A model generated the notes under the pieces. It searched no databases. It worked only from the letters and a program-made list of their open reading frames with translations, and was not told the origin of the DNA. From IMG/VR virus record IMGVR_UViG_2974796119_000001, positions 1 to 64,000 of that record: a DNA stretch of 64,000 nt. One strand, 5' to 3'. A program made the position numbers and the translations under genes. Of this stretch, positions 2,564 through 37,809 are shown piece by piece; within the stretch, counting starts at the first letter, position 1; the number at the start of each line of letters is the position of its first letter. The stretch comes from a virus (Duplodnaviria > Caudoviricetes).

Positions 2564-2641
2564 ACTCGTTCGGGCGAGTATAAAAAGAGATTAAGCCCGA
2601 AGCGTCTCGCCAGTCTTAGGGGTAATTTTGGCGGGGGTTCT
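2564..2641 (+). ncRNA. Pistol self-cleaving ribozyme (predicted cut G2637/U2638)
   Basis: P1 ACUCG/CGAGU; loop UUCGGG pseudoknots with CCCGAA; AUAAA linker; P2 AGA/UCU; UUAAG...GCG core; P3 UCUCGCCA/UGGCGGGG; GU cleavage dinucleotide. Confidence 0.92.
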
Positions 2642-2661
2642 AAACTAAAAAAAATAAAATT

Positions 2662-2958
2662 ATGAATGTTTTAAACACTTGGCAAAGCGATAGCACAAAA
2701 AAAGTATTTTTTAATGTTTCAAATCCTATTTACACAAATGGAGAGTATAATATTTACAAGGAACACAGTAAATGTTTTCTGCATACATATAAAAATATAG
2801 CTATTAACCAGTTATGCGCACCAAACAAAGAGCATATAAAAAACTTAATAAATAATACTAGACCGCTTACAAATACAAAATACACGCCTAAAACACTTAT
2901 TTATGATAGGTCAAAAGAAGCAATAAAAAAAGGTTTAACTATTTTAAAAAACTATTAA
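2662..2958 (+). CDS. hypothetical protein
   Basis: ORF directly downstream of the ribozyme. Confidence 0.7.
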   Translation: MNVLNTWQSDSTKKVFFNVSNPIYTNGEYNIYKEHSKCFLHTYKNIAINQLCAPNKEHIKNLINNTRPLTNTKYTPKTLIYDRSKEAIKKGLTILKNY

Positions 2959-2961
2959 GCA

Positions 2962-3258
2962 ATGAAGAAACTGAATACAGCGGATTTTTTAAAAGAAGTA
3001 AACACGGATTTTAATTTTAAAAGTTTCGGTCCTAATGATTTTATAAAAAAAGAATTTATAAAAATTGAAGATTTAACACCAAATCAAGAACATATCGAAC
3101 TAAACACATTAACCGAAAAAATAAAAGGTAAAAATCTGACTGTTCCGCACGTTCTATTGTATAATGATAAAAAAATACTAATAGACGGACACCATACGGT
3201 TATAGCTAAGTTGTTAAAAGGACAATCTAAAATTTTGTGTAAAATAACAATCAGATAA
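2962..3258 (+). CDS. ParB/Sulfiredoxin-like domain protein
   Basis: LTPNQ...VLL...LIDGHHT motif. Confidence 0.7.
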   Translation: MKKLNTADFLKEVNTDFNFKSFGPNDFIKKEFIKIEDLTPNQEHIELNTLTEKIKGKNLTVPHVLLYNDKKILIDGHHTVIAKLLKGQSKILCKITIR

Positions 3259-3283
3259 TAAAATATTGCTAAGGGGTTAGTAA

Positions 3284-3329
3284 TGGCGTGAAGTATTTAG
3301 TACTTATTCGGAGCGATACCGACACGCTA
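3284..3329 (+). ncRNA. Mini-tRNA-like element 3
   Basis: TGGCGTG/CACGCTA stem; AAGTA-TTTAG-TACTT hairpin; TCGG-AGCGATA-CCGA T-arm; same layout as element 2. Confidence 0.7.
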
Positions 3330-3354
3330 ACAAAAAAACTTTAAAAATTACAGA

Positions 3355-3648
3355 ATGAAAACAGGAACTAAATTTTATATTGAATTAATAGTTGATAGCT
3401 CAACCGTAAAAAATACAGATATAAAAACAGCTTTAAGCATTAAAATAAGTAGTTTAAAAACAGCTTTAAATGGTGAGGGTATAGAAATATACGAGTATAT
3501 AAAAGAAAGAGTTTTGTTTTTTGGCAAAGATGAACAAATTAGGCAAAAAATAAAACTAATTTTATCTAAACCATTAACAAAAAACAGCATTTACAAAGTT
3601 ATTAATTCTGTAGAGGCTCAACCGTTAAATTTTAAAGAATTAAACTAA
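3355..3648 (+). CDS. hypothetical protein
   Basis: ORF track. Confidence 0.65.
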   Translation: MKTGTKFYIELIVDSSTVKNTDIKTALSIKISSLKTALNGEGIEIYEYIKERVLFFGKDEQIRQKIKLILSKPLTKNSIYKVINSVEAQPLNFKELN

Positions 3649-27919: not shown

Positions 27920-28729
27920 ATGTTATCAACTACAGACAAAGAATACCACGATAATAAAGAGTTCTGGGGAGAGCATCAATTTGTTACTTTACAGAACATA
28001 ATTGACAATATAGAGTTAACGTCAGGACAGGACAGTTATTTTAAAAAGGTAAACAGACATTCAGCTTCTATTTTTGGTAAACAAGGTATAAAAAGATTAG
28101 AAGTTGACATAAAACCAAAACCAAGAGCAGTAAGTTTTCAAGTTGGCCCAAGTAAAACATTTCCATACCCTAGATTCATGATGAATTGGCACAGGGTTTC
28201 AATGGTAAATGATTGTGGTAAGCTAATACCTATAAATATAAAAAATGACCCTCTAACAAGAGATTACCTTCAAGACCATGAGTACGAATTATTGTATGAT
28301 AATAATGGAGATATTTTAGAAGGAAAAAGTAAAAATTACAATTACGGAGAATGTGTACATAAATTAGAATGTTGTTGTGACGATAAAACATTGATTGAGG
28401 ACCCTGAGTATTGGGTTAAAGGACATGATGTATCACAGCAATTTATATTTTCTGATAATTTATACGACAAAGAAGTTGTTATTGAATTTAGGTCTTCCGG
28501 ATTAGACACCTTAAATGATTGTGATATTTTAGTACATAGCGACTTAGAGCTAACATTAACGTACTGGATTAAGTGGAATTTAATTCAAGGAAATAAAAAC
28601 GCTTCTCAATCAAGAATAGATTTTTTCTGGAACTACTATAAATTAGAAAAGAAAAGAAGTAAAAGATTATTAGGGAATAAAATAACTATTAATCAAATAT
28701 TAGAATCAGTTTCATTAAAATATAGATAA
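27920..28729 (+). CDS. Second ring/tail tubular protein (crAss-like)
   Basis: FPYPRFMMNW.RVS, VVIEFRSSG, LTYWIKW; position before the muzzle gene. Confidence 0.6.
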   Translation: MLSTTDKEYHDNKEFWGEHQFVTLQNIIDNIELTSGQDSYFKKVNRHSASIFGKQGIKRLEVDIKPKPRAVSFQVGPSKTFPYPRFMMNWHRVSMVNDCGKLIPINIKNDPLTRDYLQDHEYELLYDNNGDILEGKSKNYNYGECVHKLECCCDDKTLIEDPEYWVKGHDVSQQFIFSDNLYDKEVVIEFRSSGLDTLNDCDILVHSDLELTLTYWIKWNLIQGNKNASQSRIDFFWNYYKLEKKRSKRLLGNKITINQILESVSLKYR

Positions 28730-31700
28730 TGCCTAAGTTATTAAACACATTTACAAAAGGAGCAATGAATAAAGATATTGATCCATCTTTAATGCCCCAA
28801 GACACCTATATTCATGCAGAAAACATAAGATTCACTAATAATAACGGTAACGATGGTATCGGAAACAACATCAAAGGTACTTTACAAGTAAGTGATTCTA
28901 CTGAAGGAAGTTCTGATTTTAAATGTATATCAGCAATTTTTGATAAAAATACTGATTGCATATTTTACTTCTTAGCTTCTACAGATGGAGTTATTAGTAA
29001 AATTGTAGAGTATGATATAACCAATAATCAAACTACAGACGTTCTACACGATGATCAGAGTGTATTGAAACTTATTAAATCAGGATATATAACTGGAGTA
29101 GATGAAATAAACGGTTTATTAATATTTAGTGAATGGGGTAATAACCCAAGAAGAGTCAATATAGAAAGAGCAAAAGCATACGGTAAAAACAACTTTACAG
29201 AAGAGGAAATTTCTTTAATGGTTAAGCCACCTGCTCAGAAATTAAAAACGACATTAAGAGAATCTACAACTATTTATGAGGAAGAAAATAACATTAAAGA
29301 AAAAATGTTTGCTTTTTCTTACATTTACAGATATTTAGATGGTGAATATAGTTCACCTGCTCCTTTTAGTAATTTCGCTTTCGAGCCAGAACAATTTAAT
29401 TACGACTTTTCTACTCAATCCAATAAAGCAATGGTTAACAAGTTTAATCAAGTTGTTTTAGAATTTAACACAGGAAGTAAATTAGTTACTGAAATACAGT
29501 TAATATTTAAGCAAAGTGATACCTTGCAAGCTTACATAATAGATGATTTCAATAAGAAGCAACTGGGTTGGGGAGATAACCAAACAAAAGAATTTGTTTT
29601 TGATAATTTAAAATCAATTAGACCCTTACCTAAAGAAGTTTTAAGAAATAACTTCAGCAGAATACCTTTAACAAATAAAAGTCAATCTTTAATTGATGGT
29701 AGATTAATATTATCTAATTATCTAGAAGACTACAATATAGAAGACGCTAATAAAAATAAAATTGAAATTGATTATTCACTTGAATTAAAAAGTGAAGATG
29801 TACTCAACTTACACCCAAAAAGAACGATAAAATCAATAAGAGGTTACGAAGTTGTTGTCGTTTATAAAGACAAATGGTTTAGAGAAACTACAGCTTTAAG
29901 CAGTAAGACAAATACAGTTTTTGTAAAAAACAATCTTAGCTCTAAAAGCAACACTATAGATGTTGTTATAAAAAACAAACCTCCTTTTTGGGCAAGTTAC
30001 TTTCAATTTTTTATTAGACAAAACGCTAAAGATTACGATCAAATTCTTCCAACAACATTTTATAGTGACGGTGTATTTAGATGGATGAAGATAGAGCAAT
30101 CAGACATAGATAAAGTAAAGGAAGGAGATTTATTATTTGTTAAATCTGACACAAGAGAGCTGTTAGAAAACTTAGTTAAAGTTAAAGTTTTAGAAATAAC
30201 AGTACAAGAAAAAAACTTTTTAGAAGAAACAGAAACAAACTCTCTAAAGCAAATACCTGGAGTTTATATTAAAATAAAACCAGAAAACTTTAGAATATAT
30301 GAAGATGATATAAAAATATATGATTTTAGCGGATATGATAATAATAGCGGAGGAAACAATGTTATAGGAGATAACCCTAATGTTGTTCAAAAACCTGTTT
30401 ATTATGGATCTTCAGGACTAAACGACTTAACATCTTCAGGTACATATAACGGAATAGACGATGAAAGATATTTAGTCGAGATAGATAATATTCAAAAAAG
30501 TGCAACAGGTACAATTACATTAGACTCAGGAAGTTCAGGTTCTATAGATGAAATTACATCTAACGGTATAACAATAACTAGCTCAACAGTAATTTTTGAC
30601 ACAGATTTACCAACAACAGCTAATAATTTAGCTGCAAATATAACAGCTCATTTATCAGTACCAAACTATACAGCTACAGCTGCAGGTAATGTAGTTACGG
30701 TTACAGCTGATGTTAAGGGGTCAGCTAGTAATGGATTTGTAATAGCAGCAACAAACACTACAATTACTACCTCAACTACAAACATGGTTGGTGGTGCTGA
30801 AGACACTTTTAAATGGAGTAAAAACAATGGTTCTACATACGAGCAATTAGATGTGTTAATTACAGCAGGAAATCCACAATTATTAAACGATGGAGTTGAA
30901 ATAACATTTAATTCAGCAACAGGACACGTTCCTACTGATAAATGGATTATTGGAGCTAAATCGAATACTACTAATAAATTCGGAAATAATGAAGATTCTA
31001 GAATATTTGCAATATTTAAAGGCCCAGATGAAGATTTTATATCTAGTGGAGCCGTAATTAAAATTATTTATGATGAATATGGTGACGAAAAAAAATACAT
31101 AGAAAAAGTATATATCTCATCTTCTAATTACGAGAATTTAGAAGAATGGTTTATAGGGGATGATATTATAGCTACATTAGGTATGGATAGTAATAGAGTT
31201 TACTTTAGAAGGGGTAATGTAGCTCCTTATGGTAAAAGCAAGAAGACACAAATAAATATTACTACGGATGGAACAGGTACAATGAATCTAATTATTAGAG
31301 GTATTGGTTATGAAAACTCTAATTTTGATAAAACAGCTAAAGTAAAAACTTTTTTAGAGGTTCGTCAAATGACAAATTTGATAATATTCGAAACAGAGCC
31401 AAATGATTCTTTGCCAGAAATATTTTATGAAATAGGTAGGACTTACGAGATTAAAAACGGAATGCATCAAGCCGACACAGTAAATACCCCAACAGACGTA
31501 AATCAAACAGATATACTGGACGCAAGAATAAAACTAGATTGGTTTAACGCATGGAGTTTTGGAAATGGTGTAGAAAGCTATAAGGTTTATGATGAATTTA
31601 ATAAAAAAGGTTTAGACGAAGGAGTTAGGGTAACTTCAAGAATTAAAGAAGAATACAAGCAGGTACACCGAGAAGAAGATGTTACTTGGAGTGATGTTTA

Positions 31701-32889
31701 TAATAGTGATTCTAACTTTAATGGATTAAGTGCATTTAACGCCTCTCTTTTAAACTGGATCAGATTAGATAAAGAAAACGGAAGTATTCAGAAAACACAT
31801 AACAGCAATGGAAACCTAATGGTCTTGCAAGAAGAAGGAGTAGGATTGTTACCTTACAATAAAAATGTAATTTACGATACAGAAGGAGGAAGCGTAATAG
31901 GTATATCAACAAACGTACTTGATAAAAAAAGTTATAGACCATACGCACACGGAAAAATAGGAATCGGATTAAACCCTGAAAGTTTTGTGCCTGTAGGAAG
32001 TAGAAACTACTTTACAGATAAACCAAGAGGTAATTTAGTAAGATTATCAATAGATGGAGTTACAGAAATAAACACATACGGAATGGAACATGAGTTTTCA
32101 GACCTAATGGTTAAAAACAAAACAAACTTCCTTGTAGGGGGCCATGATCCAAAAAACAATGAATACAAATTACATCTTCCTTCAGAAAACGGATGCTTAG
32201 TATTTGTAGAAAAAGGGAGAGGATTTCCAGAATACCAAACTTTTGAGCCAGACTTTATGTTATCTGCCAATAACGAATTTTACTCATGGAAAAACGGTGT
32301 AATGTACCAACACAGCGCAAATGAAACTAGAAATAATTTTTATGGAGTTCAATACGAAAGTAAATTAAAGTTTTCTGTTAATCATAGTTTTGGATCAGGT
32401 AAAATATTTAACGCTTTAGGTATTTATTCAACTCACCCTTGGCTTGCTAAATTAAAAACACTATCAACAGCAAGAGAAATACCTAAAGATTCTTTTGATA
32501 AGCAAAATGAATTTTGGTTTTCTGAAATAATGGGTAACACCAATGATGATATTTACAACAATAGTGTTTTTGGATTAGGATCATACCCGGTAACAGCAGG
32601 TGTAATAAATACAAACTTTATTCCTGACGGAATGTGTGTTGGGGATAAAATAATAAGCAAAGACATAACTTTTATAGCAAATGAAATAACCGATATACAA
32701 GGAACTGTAATTACTTTAAAAGACAGCGTAGCCCATGCTTCTACATTTTTAATGTACGCGAAAAATCAAAACATTGATGGAGCCAGTATAAAAGGAAATA
32801 TCATGGAAGTAGAGCTTATATCAGATGAAACAGAAAAAGTAGAGATACGAGCTGTAAAAACAGAAGCAATAAGGAATGTCAATACATAA
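28729..32889 (+). CDS. Muzzle/tail stabilization protein (crAss-like nozzle, beta-propeller)
   Basis: FTKGAMNKD.DP, YIHAENIR, WGNNPRR.NI, FSYIYRYLDGEYS, FGNGVES; 1386 aa. Confidence 0.85.
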   Translation: MPKLLNTFTKGAMNKDIDPSLMPQDTYIHAENIRFTNNNGNDGIGNNIKGTLQVSDSTEGSSDFKCISAIFDKNTDCIFYFLASTDGVISKIVEYDITNNQTTDVLHDDQSVLKLIKSGYITGVDEINGLLIFSEWGNNPRRVNIERAKAYGKNNFTEEEISLMVKPPAQKLKTTLRESTTIYEEENNIKEKMFAFSYIYRYLDGEYSSPAPFSNFAFEPEQFNYDFSTQSNKAMVNKFNQVVLEFNTGSKLVTEIQLIFKQSDTLQAYIIDDFNKKQLGWGDNQTKEFVFDNLKSIRPLPKEVLRNNFSRIPLTNKSQSLIDGRLILSNYLEDYNIEDANKNKIEIDYSLELKSEDVLNLHPKRTIKSIRGYEVVVVYKDKWFRETTALSSKTNTVFVKNNLSSKSNTIDVVIKNKPPFWASYFQFFIRQNAKDYDQILPTTFYSDGVFRWMKIEQSDIDKVKEGDLLFVKSDTRELLENLVKVKVLEITVQEKNFLEETETNSLKQIPGVYIKIKPENFRIYEDDIKIYDFSGYDNNSGGNNVIGDNPNVVQKPVYYGSSGLNDLTSSGTYNGIDDERYLVEIDNIQKSATGTITLDSGSSGSIDEITSNGITITSSTVIFDTDLPTTANNLAANITAHLSVPNYTATAAGNVVTVTADVKGSASNGFVIAATNTTITTSTTNMVGGAEDTFKWSKNNGSTYEQLDVLITAGNPQLLNDGVEITFNSATGHVPTDKWIIGAKSNTTNKFGNNEDSRIFAIFKGPDEDFISSGAVIKIIYDEYGDEKKYIEKVYISSSNYENLEEWFIGDDIIATLGMDSNRVYFRRGNVAPYGKSKKTQINITTDGTGTMNLIIRGIGYENSNFDKTAKVKTFLEVRQMTNLIIFETEPNDSLPEIFYEIGRTYEIKNGMHQADTVNTPTDVNQTDILDARIKLDWFNAWSFGNGVESYKVYDEFNKKGLDEGVRVTSRIKEEYKQVHREEDVTWSDVYNSDSNFNGLSAFNASLLNWIRLDKENGSIQKTHNSNGNLMVLQEEGVGLLPYNKNVIYDTEGGSVIGISTNVLDKKSYRPYAHGKIGIGLNPESFVPVGSRNYFTDKPRGNLVRLSIDGVTEINTYGMEHEFSDLMVKNKTNFLVGGHDPKNNEYKLHLPSENGCLVFVEKGRGFPEYQTFEPDFMLSANNEFYSWKNGVMYQHSANETRNNFYGVQYESKLKFSVNHSFGSGKIFNALGIYSTHPWLAKLKTLSTAREIPKDSFDKQNEFWFSEIMGNTNDDIYNNSVFGLGSYPVTAGVINTNFIPDGMCVGDKIISKDITFIANEITDIQGTVITLKDSVAHASTFLMYAKNQNIDGASIKGNIMEVELISDETEKVEIRAVKTEAIRNVNT

Positions 32890-32914: not shown

Positions 32915-32947
32915 AACACCTCTTACCATTAAGAGGTGTTTTTTTTT
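32915..32947 (+). terminator. Intrinsic terminator
   Basis: AACACCTCTTA-CCAT-TAAGAGGTGTT + T7. Confidence 0.9.
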
Positions 32948-32953
32948 ACATTT

Positions 32954-33051
32954 GCCTAACGGCAAAGTATAAGGTTAGTACGCTTTGCACAAATGTTTAA
33001 ATTAAAGTACTAACCATCACAAGCGTATTAATTTTATACAATGTTGTACGC
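32954..33051. repeat. attC-like imperfect palindrome 1
   Basis: GCCTAAC..GTATAA..TTAGTACGCTT / AAGCGTATTAA..TTATAC..GTTGTACGC. Confidence 0.65.
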
Positions 33052-33068
33052 TTTTAAAATTACGACCT

Positions 33069-33263
33069 ATGGGTATTAAATATAAAAAAATAGAGAAAAG
33101 CAAAAAATATAAATACGTTTACAAAGTAATGGATCAGCACGGCAATTATTTTTGGGCTGGAAAAGGCAAGATGAAAGATACTGAGCGTGAAGCGGCTTTA
33201 TATGTAGATAAACAATTATTAGAAAAAGGCAAAGAGCCTGTTAATATACTGATACGTAAGTAA
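33069..33263 (+). CDS. Cassette ORF, AP2-like small protein
   Basis: TEREAALYVD motif; flanked by complementary GTTGTACGC/GCGTACAAC. Confidence 0.65.
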   Translation: MGIKYKKIEKSKKYKYVYKVMDQHGNYFWAGKGKMKDTEREAALYVDKQLLEKGKEPVNILIRK

Positions 33264-33271
33264 TTTTTATT

Positions 33272-33466
33272 GCGTACAACGATGTAATGTATGGTGCGTT
33301 GCTGAATTAATAACTGACTTAAATAAATAAAGAATGAGTTTTACAGACAAAGAAATAAGCGATAGGATTGAATCTAATAATAAACTTGTAGATAAAATAC
33401 AAAGTAAAATAGACTTAATTAAAAAAGAAGAAACCGAGCAATGCACTATACATAGTGTTGTAGGGC
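33272..33466. repeat. attC-like imperfect palindrome 2, enclosing an ORF start
   Basis: TACAAC..TGTATGGTGCGTTGCT / AGCAATGCACTATACA..GTTGTA. Confidence 0.65.
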
Positions 33467-33561
33467 GAAGCGAACAGTGTTGCGAGCCAGTAAGCGAAGG
33501 TTTATATTTAGGCATTTCCTGTCCAAAATGTAAACGACCATTTAGGCAAAACCTAAAATAA
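33334..33561 (+). CDS. Small ORF reading through attC-like arm; C-terminal CxxC
   Basis: QCTIHSVVGRSEQ is encoded by the palindrome arm. Confidence 0.6.
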   Translation: MSFTDKEISDRIESNNKLVDKIQSKIDLIKKEETEQCTIHSVVGRSEQCCEPVSEGLYLGISCPKCKRPFRQNLK

Positions 33562-33615
33562 GCAGCATTGCCACAACTATCTGATAAACCCACCTAAGGT
33601 GGTAATTTTAACATT

Positions 33616-33876
33616 ATGGTAATAAAGTTTAAGTACGGATTTGAATATAAAAATTTTCTTTACGGATGGAATAAGAAAGAATTATACAGGCTACCTATTA
33701 TTGTTCATAAAAGAAGCTACCCATTAAAGAAGCTAAACTCTATAAAAATAAATAGCCATAAAGGTTATAGAATAGTAAAAGATAAAAAAACAATTAAACA
33801 GTTACAATAATTAACAGAAATTATAAACTACGATTATGTTATTAATGGAGCTAATAATAAAGATTGTCCTTTTTAA
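33616..33876 (+). pseudogene. Small ORF with possible premature TAA at 33808-33810
   Basis: Frame stays open for 21 more codons, ending ...KDCPF. Confidence 0.4.
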
Positions 33877-33890
33877 TACATAATTTTTTA

Positions 33891-33898
33891 TATATTTG
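33891..33898 (+). promoter_or_regulatory. Sigma-A -7 box for the antirepressor unit
   Basis: TATATTTG. Confidence 0.7.
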
Positions 33899-33904
33899 TC
33901 ATGT

Positions 33905-34008
33905 AGTTACGCTCTCACAATAAAGTAACTTAAAGATATTTAACAAAAACCTTATAATGAAAGTAGTGGTGAGAGCCTACTGGATTTATAAGGTTTCTTG
34001 TATTAAAT
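33905..34008 (+). promoter_or_regulatory. Kissing-loop leader of the antirepressor gene
   Basis: AGTTAC-[GCTCTCAC]-GTAACT loop is complementary to AGTAG-[GTGAGAGC]-CTACT loop on the AACCTTATAA/TTATAAGGTT stem. Confidence 0.7.
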
Positions 34009-34014
34009 AACATT

Positions 34015-34743
34015 ATGAAGCAATTAATCAACATCACAGATTCAGAAAAAGGAAAAGCAGTAAACGCAAGAGAATTGCATACTTTTTTAGAAAGTAAACA
34101 AGATTTTACCACCTGGCTTAAAGCTAGAATTTATAAATATGACTTTATAGAAGGAGAAGATTATACGTTCCATAAAGTTATGGAGGGTAATACTAAAAAG
34201 CACGAATACGCATTATCAATTGATTGCGCTAAAGAAATAGCAATGGTTGAAGGAAATGAAAAAGGTAAACAAGCAAGAAGATATTTTATAAATTGTGAAA
34301 AACAATTAAATAAACATAAACTACCAACAACTTTCGTAGAAGCTCTAAAATTAGCAGTTAAACAAGCAGAAGAATTAGAGCATAAAACACTTAAATTAAA
34401 TAAAGCAGAAGAAACAATAAAAGTAAACGAACCCAAAGTTGTTTTTGCTAATACAGTAATGGGAAGTACTAATTCTATTCTAATAAGACAATTTGCAAAA
34501 GATTTATGTGATGGCAAATTTAAAATAGGTCAAAACAAATTATTTGAATGGTTTAGGGATAATAAATACATAAATAAATCAAACGAACCATATCAAAACT
34601 ACGTAGATCAAGGTTTGTTTGAAGTTATCACTCGTTCTATAGGTAGTGGCGAAGAAACTTTCACTAGTAAAACAACAAAAATTACTTCTAAAGGAACTGT
34701 TTATTTCACTCATAAAATAAAATTAAATTACAATGCATCCTAA
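34015..34743 (+). CDS. Phage antirepressor (AntA/AntB N-domain + ANT/KilAC C-domain)
   Basis: VNARELHTFLESKQDFTTWLKARI...AKEIAMVE...RRYFI; LPTTFVEALK; PKVVFA; GQNKLFEWFR. Confidence 0.92.
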   Translation: MKQLINITDSEKGKAVNARELHTFLESKQDFTTWLKARIYKYDFIEGEDYTFHKVMEGNTKKHEYALSIDCAKEIAMVEGNEKGKQARRYFINCEKQLNKHKLPTTFVEALKLAVKQAEELEHKTLKLNKAEETIKVNEPKVVFANTVMGSTNSILIRQFAKDLCDGKFKIGQNKLFEWFRDNKYINKSNEPYQNYVDQGLFEVITRSIGSGEETFTSKTTKITSKGTVYFTHKIKLNYNAS

Positions 34744-35314
34744 AGATAATAATATTATTAAGTGTATTCCTTTTTTAAAAGTAAACAACAACGATTCTAT
34801 TATAAGACTGGATAACCCACATTTAAAATCTAGAAAAAAAACACGTGATTTTTTTAAAAAGAATGGTTATTGGAAACCTAAAACGTATGTTGGGAATAAA
34901 GGATATATATATATGCATTTAATCGATAGACCTGTTCTACTACATAGAGTAATAGCTATTCTTTTAATAAAGAATCCATTAAACTTTACTTGTGTTAATC
35001 ATAAAGACGGGAATAAATTAAATAATCATGTTTCTAATTTAGAGTGGTGTAGCTATAGTTATAACACTAAGCATTCATACAATGTTATAAAAACTCAGTC
35101 ATATAATGACTTAGTTCTTAAAGGTAAAAAAGGCAATATGAAGAGAATAGTTTTAACAAAGAAATTATCAATAAAAATATACAGAGATTACCTAATTGGT
35201 AACACTTCATATAGGGAGTTAGCTAAAAAATATTCAATAGGAAAAACCACCGTTGAAAGAGCTGTAAAAAGTAAAGGACAGATTTACTTTGCTAAAAAAA
35301 TTAAACAACAATAG
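34733..35314 (+). CDS. HNH homing endonuclease
   Basis: LHRVIA...VNHKDGNKLNNHVSNLEWC with a C-terminal HTH. Confidence 0.9.
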   Translation: MHPKDNNIIKCIPFLKVNNNDSIIRLDNPHLKSRKKTRDFFKKNGYWKPKTYVGNKGYIYMHLIDRPVLLHRVIAILLIKNPLNFTCVNHKDGNKLNNHVSNLEWCSYSYNTKHSYNVIKTQSYNDLVLKGKKGNMKRIVLTKKLSIKIYRDYLIGNTSYRELAKKYSIGKTTVERAVKSKGQIYFAKKIKQQ

Positions 35315-35717
35315 AATTATGATGGAAGAAAAATTAGAGCAAAAAATTAAAGAACTAAAAAAATTTATTGAACAAAAAACTGATTTAGGTACGGCAAATT
35401 ACTTAGGGAAAGAAATACGAGAGATTTGCGGAATGGTTGAAACAACAAAAGTTAAAACAGATAAAGAAACATTCGAAAAGTTTATGGGATGGATGGGCAT
35501 GAAAGCATCTAGGACTAAACAAATTAAAAACCACACAGTTGTTGAATATGAAGATACTGATACTTGTGACGAGAGATTTACTAAGCAAGCTTATGGAGAA
35601 TTTGATACAGGTGCGGTGTTCGATGAAAACGGAAAACTATTAAAAGGATATATAGATAGTCACGTTGCCGTAGCATCTAGCAATAGCAGTGATATTTATA
35701 TATTACTGAAAGATTAA
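35289..35717 (+). CDS. hypothetical protein (likely ATG start at 35319)
   Basis: ORF track. Confidence 0.6.
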   Translation: MLKKLNNNRIMMEEKLEQKIKELKKFIEQKTDLGTANYLGKEIREICGMVETTKVKTDKETFEKFMGWMGMKASRTKQIKNHTVVEYEDTDTCDERFTKQAYGEFDTGAVFDENGKLLKGYIDSHVAVASSNSSDIYILLKD

Positions 35718-35731
35718 AACAACAATAAATT

Positions 35732-36040
35732 ATGAGAGATACAAAACCAACTAGTTTGTTGACTGATGAATTAAGAGCTAGTTTTATTAAATGGGGAGAA
35801 TCTAAAAATTTGGATTATATACCAGACGGTAAAGATGGTTACAGTTATAGAGCTTATCAGACTATAAGGTCTAGTACATTATTTTCATGGGATTACATAG
35901 ATAGATGCCCAGATAGTCATAAGTACCACATCCTTAAAATGTACTTTAAAGAAGTTCATTCTCTAGGTATTAGTGGATTTTCTTTCGAAGAAATGGACGC
36001 AGGAATAATTACAAAAGTAAAATATTTAAAACAACAATAA
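35732..36040 (+). CDS. hypothetical protein
   Basis: ORF track. Confidence 0.6.
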   Translation: MRDTKPTSLLTDELRASFIKWGESKNLDYIPDGKDGYSYRAYQTIRSSTLFSWDYIDRCPDSHKYHILKMYFKEVHSLGISGFSFEEMDAGIITKVKYLKQQ

Positions 36041-36043
36041 ATT

Positions 36044-36592
36044 ATGATATACGTAACAGACAACTTCCTTCCAGAACAAGACTTTAAAAAACTACAAGAC
36101 TATTGCTATAGTAATGACTTTAAAATACACGATACAGGAGAAAAAGAATTTCTAGTGCTTCCAACTCCAAAAGAACTACTACCTCAACTAAAACAACAAG
36201 GACTTGAAATATCACTTTCTTTTATTAGAAAAGCACACAAAGATTTCGATACAGATTTAAGGATTCATTGCGATTCAATAATTAACGGTAAACAAACAGT
36301 AATGGCATCTGTTCTATACATTAACAAGGCAGAAGGTGTTACCCAAAACGGAACAAGATTCTATAACCATAAAATATATGGGCCTAAATTAGAAGCTGAC
36401 GATCCTAAAATTTTTGACGACCTTATTTCAAACCATAGCGAAATAAAAGAAAACTGGGAGCCTACAGATAAAGTTTACAGTAAGCCAAATAGATTACTTG
36501 TTTATGACGCATTAAAATTTCACAGTAAATGGCCTCAAGTAATTGAAGAAGGAGAAAGAATGGTGTTAGTAACTTTTTATACCGATAAATAA
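36044..36592 (+). CDS. 2OG-Fe(II) oxygenase-like protein
   Basis: YVTDNFL, HxD (IHCD), VLYIN, GTRFY, NRLLVYDA..FH, R-x-V-x-V-x-F. Confidence 0.85.
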   Translation: MIYVTDNFLPEQDFKKLQDYCYSNDFKIHDTGEKEFLVLPTPKELLPQLKQQGLEISLSFIRKAHKDFDTDLRIHCDSIINGKQTVMASVLYINKAEGVTQNGTRFYNHKIYGPKLEADDPKIFDDLISNHSEIKENWEPTDKVYSKPNRLLVYDALKFHSKWPQVIEEGERMVLVTFYTDK

Positions 36593-36705
36593 TGAAAAAA
36601 ATACCGACAAAAGAATTAAGATTTGAAAAAAGAAGAATCCCTTTAGAAGAAACAATTAAAATCTATGCAATTCATACATTGTTGGCAAATCGTTTTTATT
36701 ATTAA
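36592..36705 (+). CDS. 37-aa ORF ending in an attC-like core arm
   Basis: IHTLLANRF is encoded by ATACATTGTTGGCAA. Confidence 0.4.
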   Translation: MKKIPTKELRFEKRRIPLEETIKIYAIHTLLANRFYY

Positions 36706-37143
36706 TTAATTTTTAAGGTTTTAACTCCGCCGATTTTAAAAGTGAGTAATTAAATTCAAAATATTATGCAAACAGGAGATTTAATAGTGACGGTTCTTTG
36801 CGGGGTAATAGCTTTACTTATTATTTACGCCTTGCCGTTAATTATGACTGATGATTACGATTACCCAAGTGAAATTAGGTTTAAGTATTTAATTAGATTT
36901 TTAGATTTTTACTTGTGGATAGTTAGTTTTTTATTCGTAGTAGGTGGAACTTTAGGTGTCGGATTGATTTTTATAATAGCGTGCTTAGTTTTAATGCCAA
37001 TTGGTTTGTTTTTTGATTTTTCTTTTTTCGACTCAAAAGAAATGTTCTTAATAAATTTTTTCGGGGGTTATTATTATTTTGTGGTTGCCTACAGCATATT
37101 TAGGCATTCAAAATATTGCAAAATTAGGTAATGTTTGCCAACA
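36680..37143 (+). mobile_element. Gene-cassette-like unit bounded by complementary core/inverse-core sites
   Basis: TGTTGGCAAA (36680-36689) and TTTGCCAACA (37134-37143); the latter begins 3 nt after the ORF stop. Confidence 0.55.
36766..37131 (+). CDS. multi-pass membrane protein (cassette ORF)
   Basis: Very hydrophobic and T-rich, unlike neighbouring genes. Confidence 0.65.
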   Translation: MQTGDLIVTVLCGVIALLIIYALPLIMTDDYDYPSEIRFKYLIRFLDFYLWIVSFLFVVGGTLGVGLIFIIACLVLMPIGLFFDFSFFDSKEMFLINFFGGYYYFVVAYSIFRHSKYCKIR

Positions 37144-37188: not shown

Positions 37189-37383
37189 ATGGCAAAATCA
37201 AAAAGAAGTATTAAAAGAAGAAAAAAAGTAAAAAGTAAACCTAAATACAACTCAATACACACAGAAGATAATTCTTTCGAAAAAGGATATATGAAAACTG
37301 ATGGAATGAGTAGGATTTGTAAATATGATAAAAACCACAACTTTTTAGGATACGCTACTGAAGAAGAATCTGAAAATTTTTAA
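37189..37383 (+). CDS. small basic hypothetical protein
   Basis: ORF track. Confidence 0.5.
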   Translation: MAKSKRSIKRRKKVKSKPKYNSIHTEDNSFEKGYMKTDGMSRICKYDKNHNFLGYATEEESENF

Positions 37384-37790
37384 AAGTTATAAACCATATT
37401 AGTCATGTTTTTATCCCCATAAATAAAACCATTATCTAAATACTTATTAATCAGGTGTTCGTTTTTAATCCATGAAAGGATAGTTACGGCACCTGCTTTT
37501 TTTGCTAATTCAATAATGCTTTTAATAGTGTAGTCAACAACTTTTTTTCTAGCTTCTTTATCCTTTATTTTTGGATTACTTATTATAAATTCCATTATAA
37601 ATACCTTACTAGCAGAAGTACTGTATAAAAAACCAGCACAAGCAGGTTCACCATTTACAGATATTAAAATACCATCTTCCATATTATCAGGTAAAGCAAC
37701 CCTTGGTACTGGAGTCCACCTCCAAAGCTTCCACCATTCTGCTAACATTTTATAATCTTCCTCAGTTAAATGTCTTAAAGTGTATTCCAT
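37380..37790 (-). CDS. GNAT-fold acetyltransferase-like protein
   Basis: LRHLTEEDY, PACAGFLY, MEFIISNP, LINKYLDNGF; minus-strand TATATTTG at 37805-37798. Confidence 0.75.
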   Translation of the reverse strand: MEYTLRHLTEEDYKMLAEWWKLWRWTPVPRVALPDNMEDGILISVNGEPACAGFLYSTSASKVFIMEFIISNPKIKDKEARKKVVDYTIKSIIELAKKAGAVTILSWIKNEHLINKYLDNGFIYGDKNMTNMVYNF

Positions 37791-37809
37791 ATACCTACAA
37801 ATATAGTCT

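Follow-up and report, generated by a model that had tools for sequence, protein, structure and literature searches.

Organization of the accessory island

The region under study is an accessory island in the genome of a lytic Flavobacteriaceae-type phage (record IMGVR_UViG_2974796119_000001), and the window is the whole 64,000-nt stretch analysed, i.e., positions 1 to 64,000 of that record. The complete genome is 78,833 bp long and carries direct terminal repeats. The island begins behind the gene for a 1386-aa structural protein, and in the relatives phi38:1 and Panino the flanking structural genes are contiguous, so the island is an insertion. It contains the following features, all on the plus strand.

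32915-32949 (+): intrinsic terminator (11-bp stem plus T run) ending the 1386-aa structural gene and marking the left edge of the island.
32958-33065 (+): site 1, the conserved element E, with AAC at 32958-32960, an 18-bp stem (32967-32984 with 33022-33039) including two invariant G.T pairs, TGTT at 33042-33045, the left core GTTGTACGC at 33043-33051 and the tail TTTTAAAATTAC at 33052-33063.
33069-33263 (+): ORF1, 64 aa, a real conserved small protein (cassette cargo).
33260-33280 (+): right arm GTAATTTTTATTGCGTACAAC, which overlaps the stop codon and is the inverted complement of the left core plus tail (17 of 21 positions, with a conserved U.U internal loop).
33278-33465 (+): site 2 (provisional), with AAC at 33278-33280, the inner stem ATGTATGGTG (33287-33296) with CACTATACAT (33444-33453; one G.T), TGTT at 33456-33459 and the core GTTGTAGGG at 33457-33465; the 147-nt loop holds the start of ORF2 (33334-33561).
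33570-33577 (+): inverse-core candidate GCCACAAC after ORF2, pairing at 6 of 8 positions with 33457-33464.
34015-36592 (+): rest of the island, i.e., an antirepressor (AntA + KilAC), an HNH endonuclease, two ORFs without family and a DUF6445 protein, with tight junctions (and a 22-mer junction repeat) but no AAC-hairpin-GTT sites.
36673-36689 (+): 3' half of a site, CATACAT-TGTT-GGCAAA, the left core of the membrane-protein unit, lying inside a 37-codon ORF (36593-36706).
36766-37131 (+): 121-aa ORF with no family match, hydrophobic and membrane-like (cassette cargo).
37134-37142 (+): inverse core TTTGCC-AAC, 2 nt after the stop codon and the exact complement of GTT-GGCAAA.

Homologues of ORF1 at 45-58% identity are found in 5 metagenome clusters, some of them without E upstream. 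Site 2 was read from the sequence alone: its context motif matches the family consensus, but it is not independently conserved elsewhere.

Inverted core pairs and the test against chance

A sequence-only reading of the window had reported three inverted pairs around small ORFs and had placed them at the ends of long imperfect palindromes. This observation is confirmed, as all three pairs are present exactly as written: GTTGTACGC (33043-33051) with GCGTACAAC (33272-33280), TGTTGGCAAA (36680-36689) with TTTGCCAACA (37134-37143), and GTTGTAGG (33457) with GCCACAAC (33570). The palindromes are also real, since site 1 folds at -25.7 kcal/mol (z -2.25) and its stem covaries. Within the window alone, however, the pairs are not above chance. 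Exact inverted 9-mers within 600 nt number 522, against 473 +/- 29 in dinucleotide shuffles, and 10-mers number 164 against 137 +/- 16. Pair 1 extends to 27 nt with 22 of 27 positions matching, but this score is reached 1.1 times per shuffled window. A whole-genome scan for GTT-N6/N6'-AAC pairs is likewise swamped by A/T-rich matches, with 91 on the plus strand against about 47 in shuffles.

Comparison with other DNA overturns the chance reading for pairs 1 and 2. In 67 of 87 unique copies of E in other contigs, the reverse complement (at most 1 mismatch) of that copy's own 9-mer core lies 2-20 nt after the stop codon of the first downstream ORF, whatever the ORF, and variant cores co-vary, as in GTTATATGC/GCATATAAC and GTTGTGCGC/GCGCACAAC. 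Pair 2 sits in the context motif of the family (..CATACATTGTT-N6 ... N6'-AAC). Pair 3 is the weakest of the three: it matches at only 6 of 8 positions but also has the context CTATACATAGTGTT, which makes it plausible. Chance inverted repeats in A+T-rich DNA, with no function, are therefore refuted for pairs 1 and 2 by conservation, co-variation and recurrence across more than 150 contigs and a cultured phage; this explanation is very unlikely overall and remains possible only for pair 3.

Element E is conserved next to unrelated ORFs

E is a sharply bounded element of about 108 nt that is more than 90% conserved in over 120 metagenome contigs and about 20 viral contigs, and in 99 unique copies with sharp edges. 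It is single-copy in the genome and was seen in seawater, wastewater, digester, sediment and leaf-litter data. In essentially all copies it ends 2-4 nt before the ATG of unrelated small ORFs, and at least 40 ORF clusters follow it. The sites thus passed the refutation test set by the sequence-only reading itself, as they recur next to unrelated ORFs. An ATG inside E (MLYAFKIT..) could suggest a coding extension of the downstream ORF, but this was rejected because it is in frame with that ORF in only about half of the copies and because the nucleotide conservation includes silent positions.

The stem of E shows double changes at 14 of 23 pairs, a level reached in 0 of 500 shuffles, and G.T pairs are tolerated only on the coding strand. 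An alternative, mutually exclusive fold (P1 with P4) also covaries, whereas a putative pseudoknot P2 (loop GGTTAGTAC with GTACTGACC) has one pair broken in 13 of 41 sequences. Rfam searches, both at the gathering threshold and at E-value 10, returned nothing at the sites; the only hit in the window is a Pistol ribozyme at 2564-2642. The 3' stem arm may bear some resemblance to Xer/dif sites.

Megablast and blastn of the island and of E against 50,697 cultured phage records gave no match, searches of viral contigs with single proteins revealed no close relatives, and a literature search for the sequence strings returned nothing.

Arrays, mobility and a cultured phage with the same architecture

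Units upstream of E in the same arrays carry their own GTT-N6 ... N6'-AAC pairs: in 47 of 91 loci the N6'-AAC just before E has its GTT-N6 partner one ORF upstream, against 7 of 91 in the control. The AAC and TGTT are nearly invariant and flank hairpins of variable stem, loop and length. With regard to mobility, 28 pairs of contigs share E, the ORF and the right arm at 81-99% identity, with no similarity in the 410 nt upstream and none beyond the arm. Hairpin modules alone are also shared, with edges immediately before AACGG and immediately after TGTT. However, homology between units with the same ORF stops at the AAC, before the downstream hairpin, unlike the canonical cassette boundary between G and TT. 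A search for near-identical genomes or contigs differing by one unit found only duplicates, and a flank-extension analysis of units not linked to E was too noisy to fix which hairpin travels with an ORF.

The cultured Polaribacter phage P12002L has the same architecture. Complementarity there spans 185-907 nt, including 240-aa methyltransferase genes, with arms of only about 9 nt, which is awkward for RNA pairing but natural for an R-box. There, too, the flanks within one site are not complementary to each other. CALINs have been published in virulent phages, including a site of this same type in P12002L (PMC9892861). In that study attC finders called sites in this region of P12002L, HattCI having called the site of the same type. 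The latter, P12002L_attC1, gave no IntI1 recombinants, while P12002L_attC2, which overlaps the right arm of the gp35 unit in the reverse direction, was recombined by IntI1 on one strand only.

Absence of an integrase and lack of support for a host source

No tyrosine or serine recombinase is present in the complete 78,833-bp genome (PF00589 and PF00239 are absent), and none above cut-off (no PF00589 hit) is found in 10 other E-bearing viral contigs. The integron integrase TIGR02249 was not found in 301 sampled Flavobacteriaceae genomes, although the control genomes also lack it. An exact 22-mer of E occurs in only 7 records of 185,579 species genomes, mostly short MAG or uncultured contigs plus a 15-kb scaffold of the isolate Gelidibacter japonicus.

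The interpretation given by the sequence-only reading, namely that the phage captures cassettes from host CALIN-like arrays using a recombinase supplied in trans, is thus only partly supported. The cassette layout, with a core and an inverse core that are complementary across one ORF but not within one site, is supported, as is the absence of an integrase, which now holds for the whole genome. Capture from host CALIN-like arrays is not supported, and recombination itself is unproven.

Cassette recombination, RNA module or regulatory cassette

Altogether, these findings establish a real, integron-like cassette architecture whose mechanism is unproven, being either recombination of folded single strands or an RNA leader-trailer role. 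In the preferred but tentative view, the region holds integron-like gene cassettes, in which each accessory ORF is bounded on its 5' side by GTT-N6 and on its 3' side by the complementary N6'-AAC, and each junction between ORFs is an AAC-[imperfect hairpin]-TGTT site. The two flanks of one site are not complementary to each other beyond AAC/GTT, but the two flanks of one ORF are, as would be expected if each unit can exist as a circle in which its two ends close one folded site, which is the attC logic. The analysis itself demonstrates the architecture, its conservation, the covariation, the strand bias of folding and the recurrence of units and hairpin modules in unrelated phage contexts. It is only inferred that exchange happens by recombination of sites folded on the coding strand, that this is catalysed by an enzyme the phage does not encode (for example a host Xer-like or other tyrosine recombinase, or a structure-specific nuclease), and that the 108-nt site doubles as the 5' leader of the gene behind it. 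Against this view stand the lack of a recombinase in the phage and of an integron integrase in the sampled genomes, the inactivity of P12002L_attC1 with IntI1, the homology edge at the AAC and the absence of near-identical genomes differing by one unit from the search. Several features fit the canonical system only in part. Beyond AAC/GTT, most cores do not follow RYYYAAC/GTTRRRY: GCCTAAC of the window fits, but GTTGTAC and most N6 do not. The inner stem GTATA.../...TATAC covaries, but the spacers are 6 and 3 nt rather than about 5 and 6, no extrahelical bases were identified, and the G.T pairs make the coding strand the better folder, opposite to the canonical case.

It has to be considered that E has features of an RNA. 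In this less likely view, E would be a structured 5' leader, possibly a switch between a long hairpin and the P1+P4 fold, and the left and right arms would form a leader-trailer helix of about 21 bp closing each small ORF, for example as an RNase III processing or stabilising stem or as a translational gate; shuffling between phages would then be a by-product of homologous recombination in the conserved flanks. The compensatory changes, the two invariant G.U pairs and folding on the coding strand only speak for this view, and the tolerance of G.T only on the coding strand, the two covarying alternative folds and the fixed distance to the ATG fit an RNA leader at least as well as a recombination site. 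The right arm also embeds the stop codon, the arms consist of 9 bp, an internal loop and 8 bp (about two helical turns), every site seen is co-oriented with its ORF, and no recombinase is needed. E-bearing contigs occur in metatranscriptome libraries of three studies, although contigs cannot show transcription, ends or strand. On the other hand, invariant AAC/GTT with free N6 is not what pairing alone predicts, non-Watson-Crick positions in the arms are not biased to G.U (about 21 G.U against 14 A.C), and the arms of about 9 nt in P12002L would have to pair across up to 907 nt. Identity above 90% over 108 nt across many habitats is unusual for a leader, and no Rfam family matches.

A third and unlikely possibility is that the hairpins and A/T-rich tails are PeSL-like regulatory cassettes, i.e., terminator-promoter or protein-binding modules at gene boundaries. 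Module exchange would arise from homologous or template-switch recombination, or from cruciform cutting, at the conserved hairpins without a dedicated site-specific system, and the complementary cores would be kept because they travel together. Breakpoints do occur at several places inside the conserved segments, as homologous recombination would give. Deletion forms between short direct repeats inside E are found at loci L152/L153 and L102, and recombinant units whose arms no longer match at loci L060 and L155. T4-type phages shuffle ORFs at conserved promoter/stem-loop motifs (PMC2839356, PMC4122927), the phages studied here encode HNH endonucleases, and P12002L encodes a junction-specific endonuclease. 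However, PeSLs are direct repeats, and nothing in that model produces ORF-specific inverted complementarity with co-variation. The host-type (Bacteroidetes) -7 motif TAnnTTTG is not enriched in the window, is not conserved upstream of E and is not part of the conserved element.

If the units recombine, they represent a route by which lytic phages swap small accessory genes, likely host-takeover or anti-defence genes, at defined sites without encoding an integrase, which would extend integron-type logic to a phage-borne, Bacteroidota-wide system. A bolder and, on present evidence, unlikely proposal is that lytic Bacteroidota phages carry their own cassette-exchange system, whose sites fold on the coding strand and double as mRNA leaders, and which works without an integron integrase through a host Xer-type enzyme, a structure-specific nuclease or an unknown phage protein. 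One 108-nt site, E, would then have spread across many phage lineages and habitats as the preferred docking point for small accessory genes. Even on the RNA reading, E is an undescribed and very widespread structured element that would deserve an RNA-family entry, and P12002L provides a cultured model in which both readings are directly testable.

Comparison with known systems

Leader-trailer helices of rRNA operons and T7 RNase III sites also rely on complementary sequences on both sides of a transcribed unit, which form a helix of about 20 bp with an internal loop. They are not known around individual small protein-coding ORFs in arrays, and the parallel is drawn here by analogy, without processing data. 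The PeSL motifs of T4-type phages (PMC2839356, PMC4122927) are likewise conserved intergenic regulatory motifs that delimit small ORFs in hyperplastic regions and mediate modular shuffling without a dedicated recombinase gene. PeSLs act as direct repeats flanking the shuffled ORFs, whereas here the flanks of each ORF are inverted and unit-specific, and the hairpins are bounded by invariant AAC/GTT.

The attC sites of integrons and CALINs (clusters of attC lacking an integrase), including those reported in virulent phages (Qi et al. 2023, PMC9892861; Cury et al. 2016, PMC4889954), share with the present sites an AAC ... GTT frame around an imperfect hairpin of variable length, an inverse core after an ORF complementary to the core before the same ORF, arrays of small co-oriented ORFs of unknown function, and the lack of a nearby integrase. 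A complete integron has an integron integrase (IntI, a tyrosine recombinase with an extra domain) next to the array, which is absent here. A CALIN is defined by at least two sites within 4 kb on one strand that pass the attC covariance model (IntegronFinder) or HattCI, for which the evidence here is indirect, HattCI having called a site of the same type in P12002L. The present sites differ in most of their cores beyond the triplets, in their 6/3 spacers, in the strand that folds well, in homology edges that fall at AAC rather than between G and TT after the hairpin, and in abutting the next ATG at a fixed distance. They also differ in that no IntI was found in the phage or in sampled host-family genomes, and in the inactivity of P12002L_attC1 with IntI1. 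In the homogeneous attC families of sedentary chromosomal integrons, such as the Vibrio cholerae repeats, one long site sequence is kept next to many unrelated cassettes, as E (about 108 nt) is kept above 90% identical here. E, however, is single-copy per phage genome and spread over many different phage backbones and habitats, rather than repeated hundreds of times in one host chromosome.

Genomic setting of the accessory island

The window covers bases 1-64000 of a 78,833-bp IMG/VR virus record that carries direct terminal repeats and is rated 100% complete. It has a G+C content of about 30%, and almost all genes lie on the + strand. The 1386-aa structural protein (28729-32889) is about 35% identical to virion proteins of the Cellulophaga phages phi38:1/phi40:1 (Pervagoviridae) and of Maribacter phage Panino. 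In those phages, the homologous structural genes follow one another directly, while here they are separated by about 4.5 kb of accessory genes:

ORF1, 64 aa
ORF2, 75 aa
ORF3, 64 aa
an AntA/KilAC antirepressor
an HNH endonuclease
two ORFs without a family
a DUF6445 protein
a 121-aa hydrophobic ORF
a 64-aa ORF

A strong terminator (32915-32940 plus a T run) precedes the island, and the whole genome has no tyrosine or serine recombinase. The basic product of ORF1 (33069-33263, +) has, by eye, an AP2-like DNA-binding look (Y.YVYK..G.YFWAGKGK..DTEREAALYVD), yet this resemblance is supported by no Pfam or PHROG hit. The leader of the antirepressor gene (33900-34020, +) follows a TATATTTG motif and folds into two hairpins (-24.6 kcal/mol, z -2.41), the loop octamers of which, GCTCTCAC and GTGAGAGC, are complementary. 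This leader is not related in sequence to the conserved element described below. An exact 22-nt repeat, TTAAAACAACAATAAATTATGA, found at 35714-35735 and 36026-36047 (+), with a related copy near 35295-35320, spans the stop-to-start junction of consecutive island ORFs and is a second, different kind of gene-junction motif. A 136-aa protein at 37380-37790 (-) (phrog_17252) is weakly similar to phi38:1 gp098 (23% identity, E 3e-5). Here it lies on the opposite strand to the structural genes, with divergent TATATTTG motifs at 37798-37805 (-) and 37848 (+).

Inverted pairs within the window

The sequence-only reading had placed three inverted pairs of short sequences in this island, two of them around small ORFs, and had interpreted them as the core and inverse-core sites of integron-like cassettes. 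The observation itself holds, since all three pairs are present where that reading had put them. Judged inside the window alone, however, they are unremarkable. Exact inverted 9-mers within 600 nt number 522, against 473 +/- 29 in shuffled sequences, and 10-mers number 164, against 137 +/- 16. The pair flanking ORF1 extends to 27 nt at 22/27 matches, but this score is reached about once per shuffled window. Chance as an overall explanation is nevertheless considered very unlikely.

A conserved and portable element upstream of ORF1

The picture was changed by comparison with other DNA. ORF1 has homologues in metagenome contigs, and in one of these (contig L005, 52% protein identity), the roughly 110 nt upstream of the ATG are about 95% identical to the window, although the coding sequence has diverged. 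Exact-pattern scans then revealed this element, hereafter E, in many places: 7, 14 and 13 hits (overlapping lists) in IMG/VR viral contigs; more than 120 metagenome contigs, a number that is a lower bound; and 7 records of the species-genome collection, mostly short MAG or uncultured contigs plus a 15-kb scaffold of the isolate Gelidibacter japonicus. A profile search finds a single copy in the window's own genome, and E was found in no cultured phage record.

In 99 unique copies, E has a sharp 5′ edge at AACGG and a 3′ edge at ...TTTTAAAATTACG, and it sits 2-4 nt before the ATG of at least 40 unrelated clusters of small ORFs. The sequence GTTGTACGC, which the sequence-only reading had taken as a core, is therefore part of a conserved, portable element. 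E often lies within 20-600 nt of a contig end (for example in loci L011, L012, L013, L146, L023, L026, L065 and L088, numbered among the E-bearing contigs), which fits assembly graphs breaking at a repeat shared by several co-occurring phages. In at least 16 loci (L012, L116, L129, L106, L108, L063, L034 and others), a SNF2-type helicase gene is present, and in several of them it lies immediately upstream of E, so that in many phages E sits in the replication module rather than after a structural gene.

Predicted structure of E

The structure of E was examined on an alignment that includes divergent copies. The long hairpin has 91.8% of cells paired, and 14 of 23 pairs change on both sides; none of 500 shuffles reaches this, and slid controls fall to 30-45% paired. 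Two stem positions are G.T in 40-41 of 41 sequences, and the stem therefore folds well only on the coding strand. A mutually exclusive fold also covaries. This fold is composed of P1, which pairs the 5′ spacer with the start of the apical loop, and P4, which pairs AGCGTA with TACGCT. Folding on the coding strand only and the two covarying alternative folds speak for an RNA role of E, as does its fixed distance to the ATG. RNA libraries of three studies contain E-bearing contigs, although this does not prove transcription. E matches no Rfam family, whereas elsewhere in the window, at 2564-2642 (+), a full-length Pistol self-cleaving ribozyme is recognised (Rfam RF02679, 65.6 bits against a gathering score of 34.5).

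ORF-specific pairing of the flanking sequences

In 67 of 87 unique copies of E, the reverse complement (at most one mismatch) of that copy's own GTT-N6 lies 2-20 nt after the stop codon of the first ORF. This holds for ORFs of 33-103 aa from unrelated families, and variant cores have matching variant partners. The full right arm, GTAATTTTTATTGCGTACAAC, overlaps the stop codon and pairs with the left core plus tail as 9 bp, a conserved U.U internal loop, and then 8 bp. By contrast, the N6'AAC that immediately precedes E is not complementary to E's own GTT-N6. In 47 of 91 loci, its complement lies one ORF further upstream (7 of 91 in the control), always in the context ..TATAyAy-TGTT-N6.

Each ORF therefore has its own pair, and each junction is an AAC-hairpin-TGTT site whose two flanks belong to different ORFs. 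In integrons, this is the relation between core and inverse core in cassette arrays, which is what the sequence-only reading had invoked. The hairpins that follow the right arm are of several types, for example short stems with a conserved CGTTTTAATG loop.

Recurrence of units and modules in unrelated contexts

Twenty-eight pairs of contigs share E, the ORF and the right arm at 81-99% identity, for example 98.8% over 253 nt and over 260 nt, with no similarity in the 410 nt upstream and none beyond the arm. Homology between same-ORF units ends 15-30 nt after the stop codon, at the AAC. Hairpin modules alone are shared between unrelated flanks, with edges at the start of AACGG and at the end of TGTT or just before the ATG, and modules composed of the ORF and arm occur without E. 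However, breakpoints also fall inside conserved segments, and there are natural deletion forms of E (L152:237-279, L153:4576-4608 and L102:687-822) in which the segment between the two direct GTACGCTTT repeats, or between CTTT repeats, is missing, yet the remnant still abuts an ATG. No pair of near-identical genomes differing by one unit was found.

Reinterpretation of the island

In the light of these comparisons, the sites of the window can be read as follows:

32958-33065: site 1, which is E
33069-33263 (+): ORF1
33260-33280: right arm closing ORF1, with the AAC at which site 2 starts
33287-33296 / 33444-53: inner stem of site 2, with one G.T
33456: TGTT of site 2
33570: partner of the site 2 core, matching at only 6 of 8 positions
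36766-37131: membrane-like ORF, bracketed by CATACAT-TGTT-GGCAAA and TTTGCC-AAC, in the context motif of the family

The loop of site 2 contains the start of ORF2, and ORF2 is consequently translated through the core, as the sequence-only reading had seen. The pairs around ORF1 and around the membrane-like ORF were the only G+C-containing exact pairs in that context in the inspected part of the genome scan. The stretch from the antirepressor to the DUF6445 gene has tight junctions without such sites.

Candidate recombinases and interpretation

No PF00589 hit above cut-off was obtained in 10 other E-bearing contigs of 28-59 kb. Likewise, no integron integrase was found in the Gelidibacter genome that holds a partial E, nor in 301 sampled genomes of its family; since the control genomes also lack this integrase family, the result means that it was not found rather than that it is absent. 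Generic Xer-like recombinases are present in the Gelidibacter genome. On the G. japonicus scaffold 32 (L159), a partial E without the 3′ tail (118-213, -) sits at the end of the scaffold, and a Xer-like tyrosine recombinase frame of about 290 aa (2671-3492, -) lies about 2.5 kb away. This may be an integrated element.

Altogether, the analysis shows the conservation and covariation of E, the ORF-specific complementarity and the recurrence of modules in unrelated contexts, whereas recombination of folded strands, the enzyme that would perform it and an RNA function are inferred. Folded-strand recombination is favoured by the ORF-specific complementarity, the invariant AAC/GTT, the short arms that span up to 0.9 kb, the module recurrence and the published precedent considered below. 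Besides the folding properties and the fixed spacing of E, an RNA role is favoured by arms of about two helical turns that embed the stop codon and by strict co-orientation with the ORFs, and it requires no recombinase. The two readings are not exclusive. We tentatively place attC-like cassettes served by an unknown enzyme first, without regarding this reading as established. A purely RNA module is less likely, and PeSL-like regulatory hairpins shuffled by general recombination are more doubtful still. The interpretation given by the sequence-only reading is thus supported only in part, as its proposal that the phage captures cassettes from host CALIN arrays is not supported.

Relation to attC sites reported in phages

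A total of 17 CALINs have been reported in phages (Qi et al. 2023, PMC9892861), with virulent examples including Polaribacter phage P12002L, and IntI1 recombined five of the six phage attC sites tested in that study. The genus Polaribacter belongs to the Flavobacteriaceae. P12002L_attC1, which was predicted by HattCI only, is a site of exactly the CGTTTTAATG-loop type, and it is the one that gave no recombinants. P12002L_attC2, predicted in the opposite direction, overlaps the right arm of the gp35 methyltransferase unit and recombined on one strand only. Our scan of P12002L shows the same architecture along its minus-strand early region, where at least eight ORFs, including 240-aa methyltransferases, are bracketed by GTT-N6/N6'-AAC pairs 185-907 nt apart. 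While we found no description of the extent of this site family, of E, or of the ORF-specific pairing rule, the window therefore belongs to a family of sites already flagged once as attC-like.
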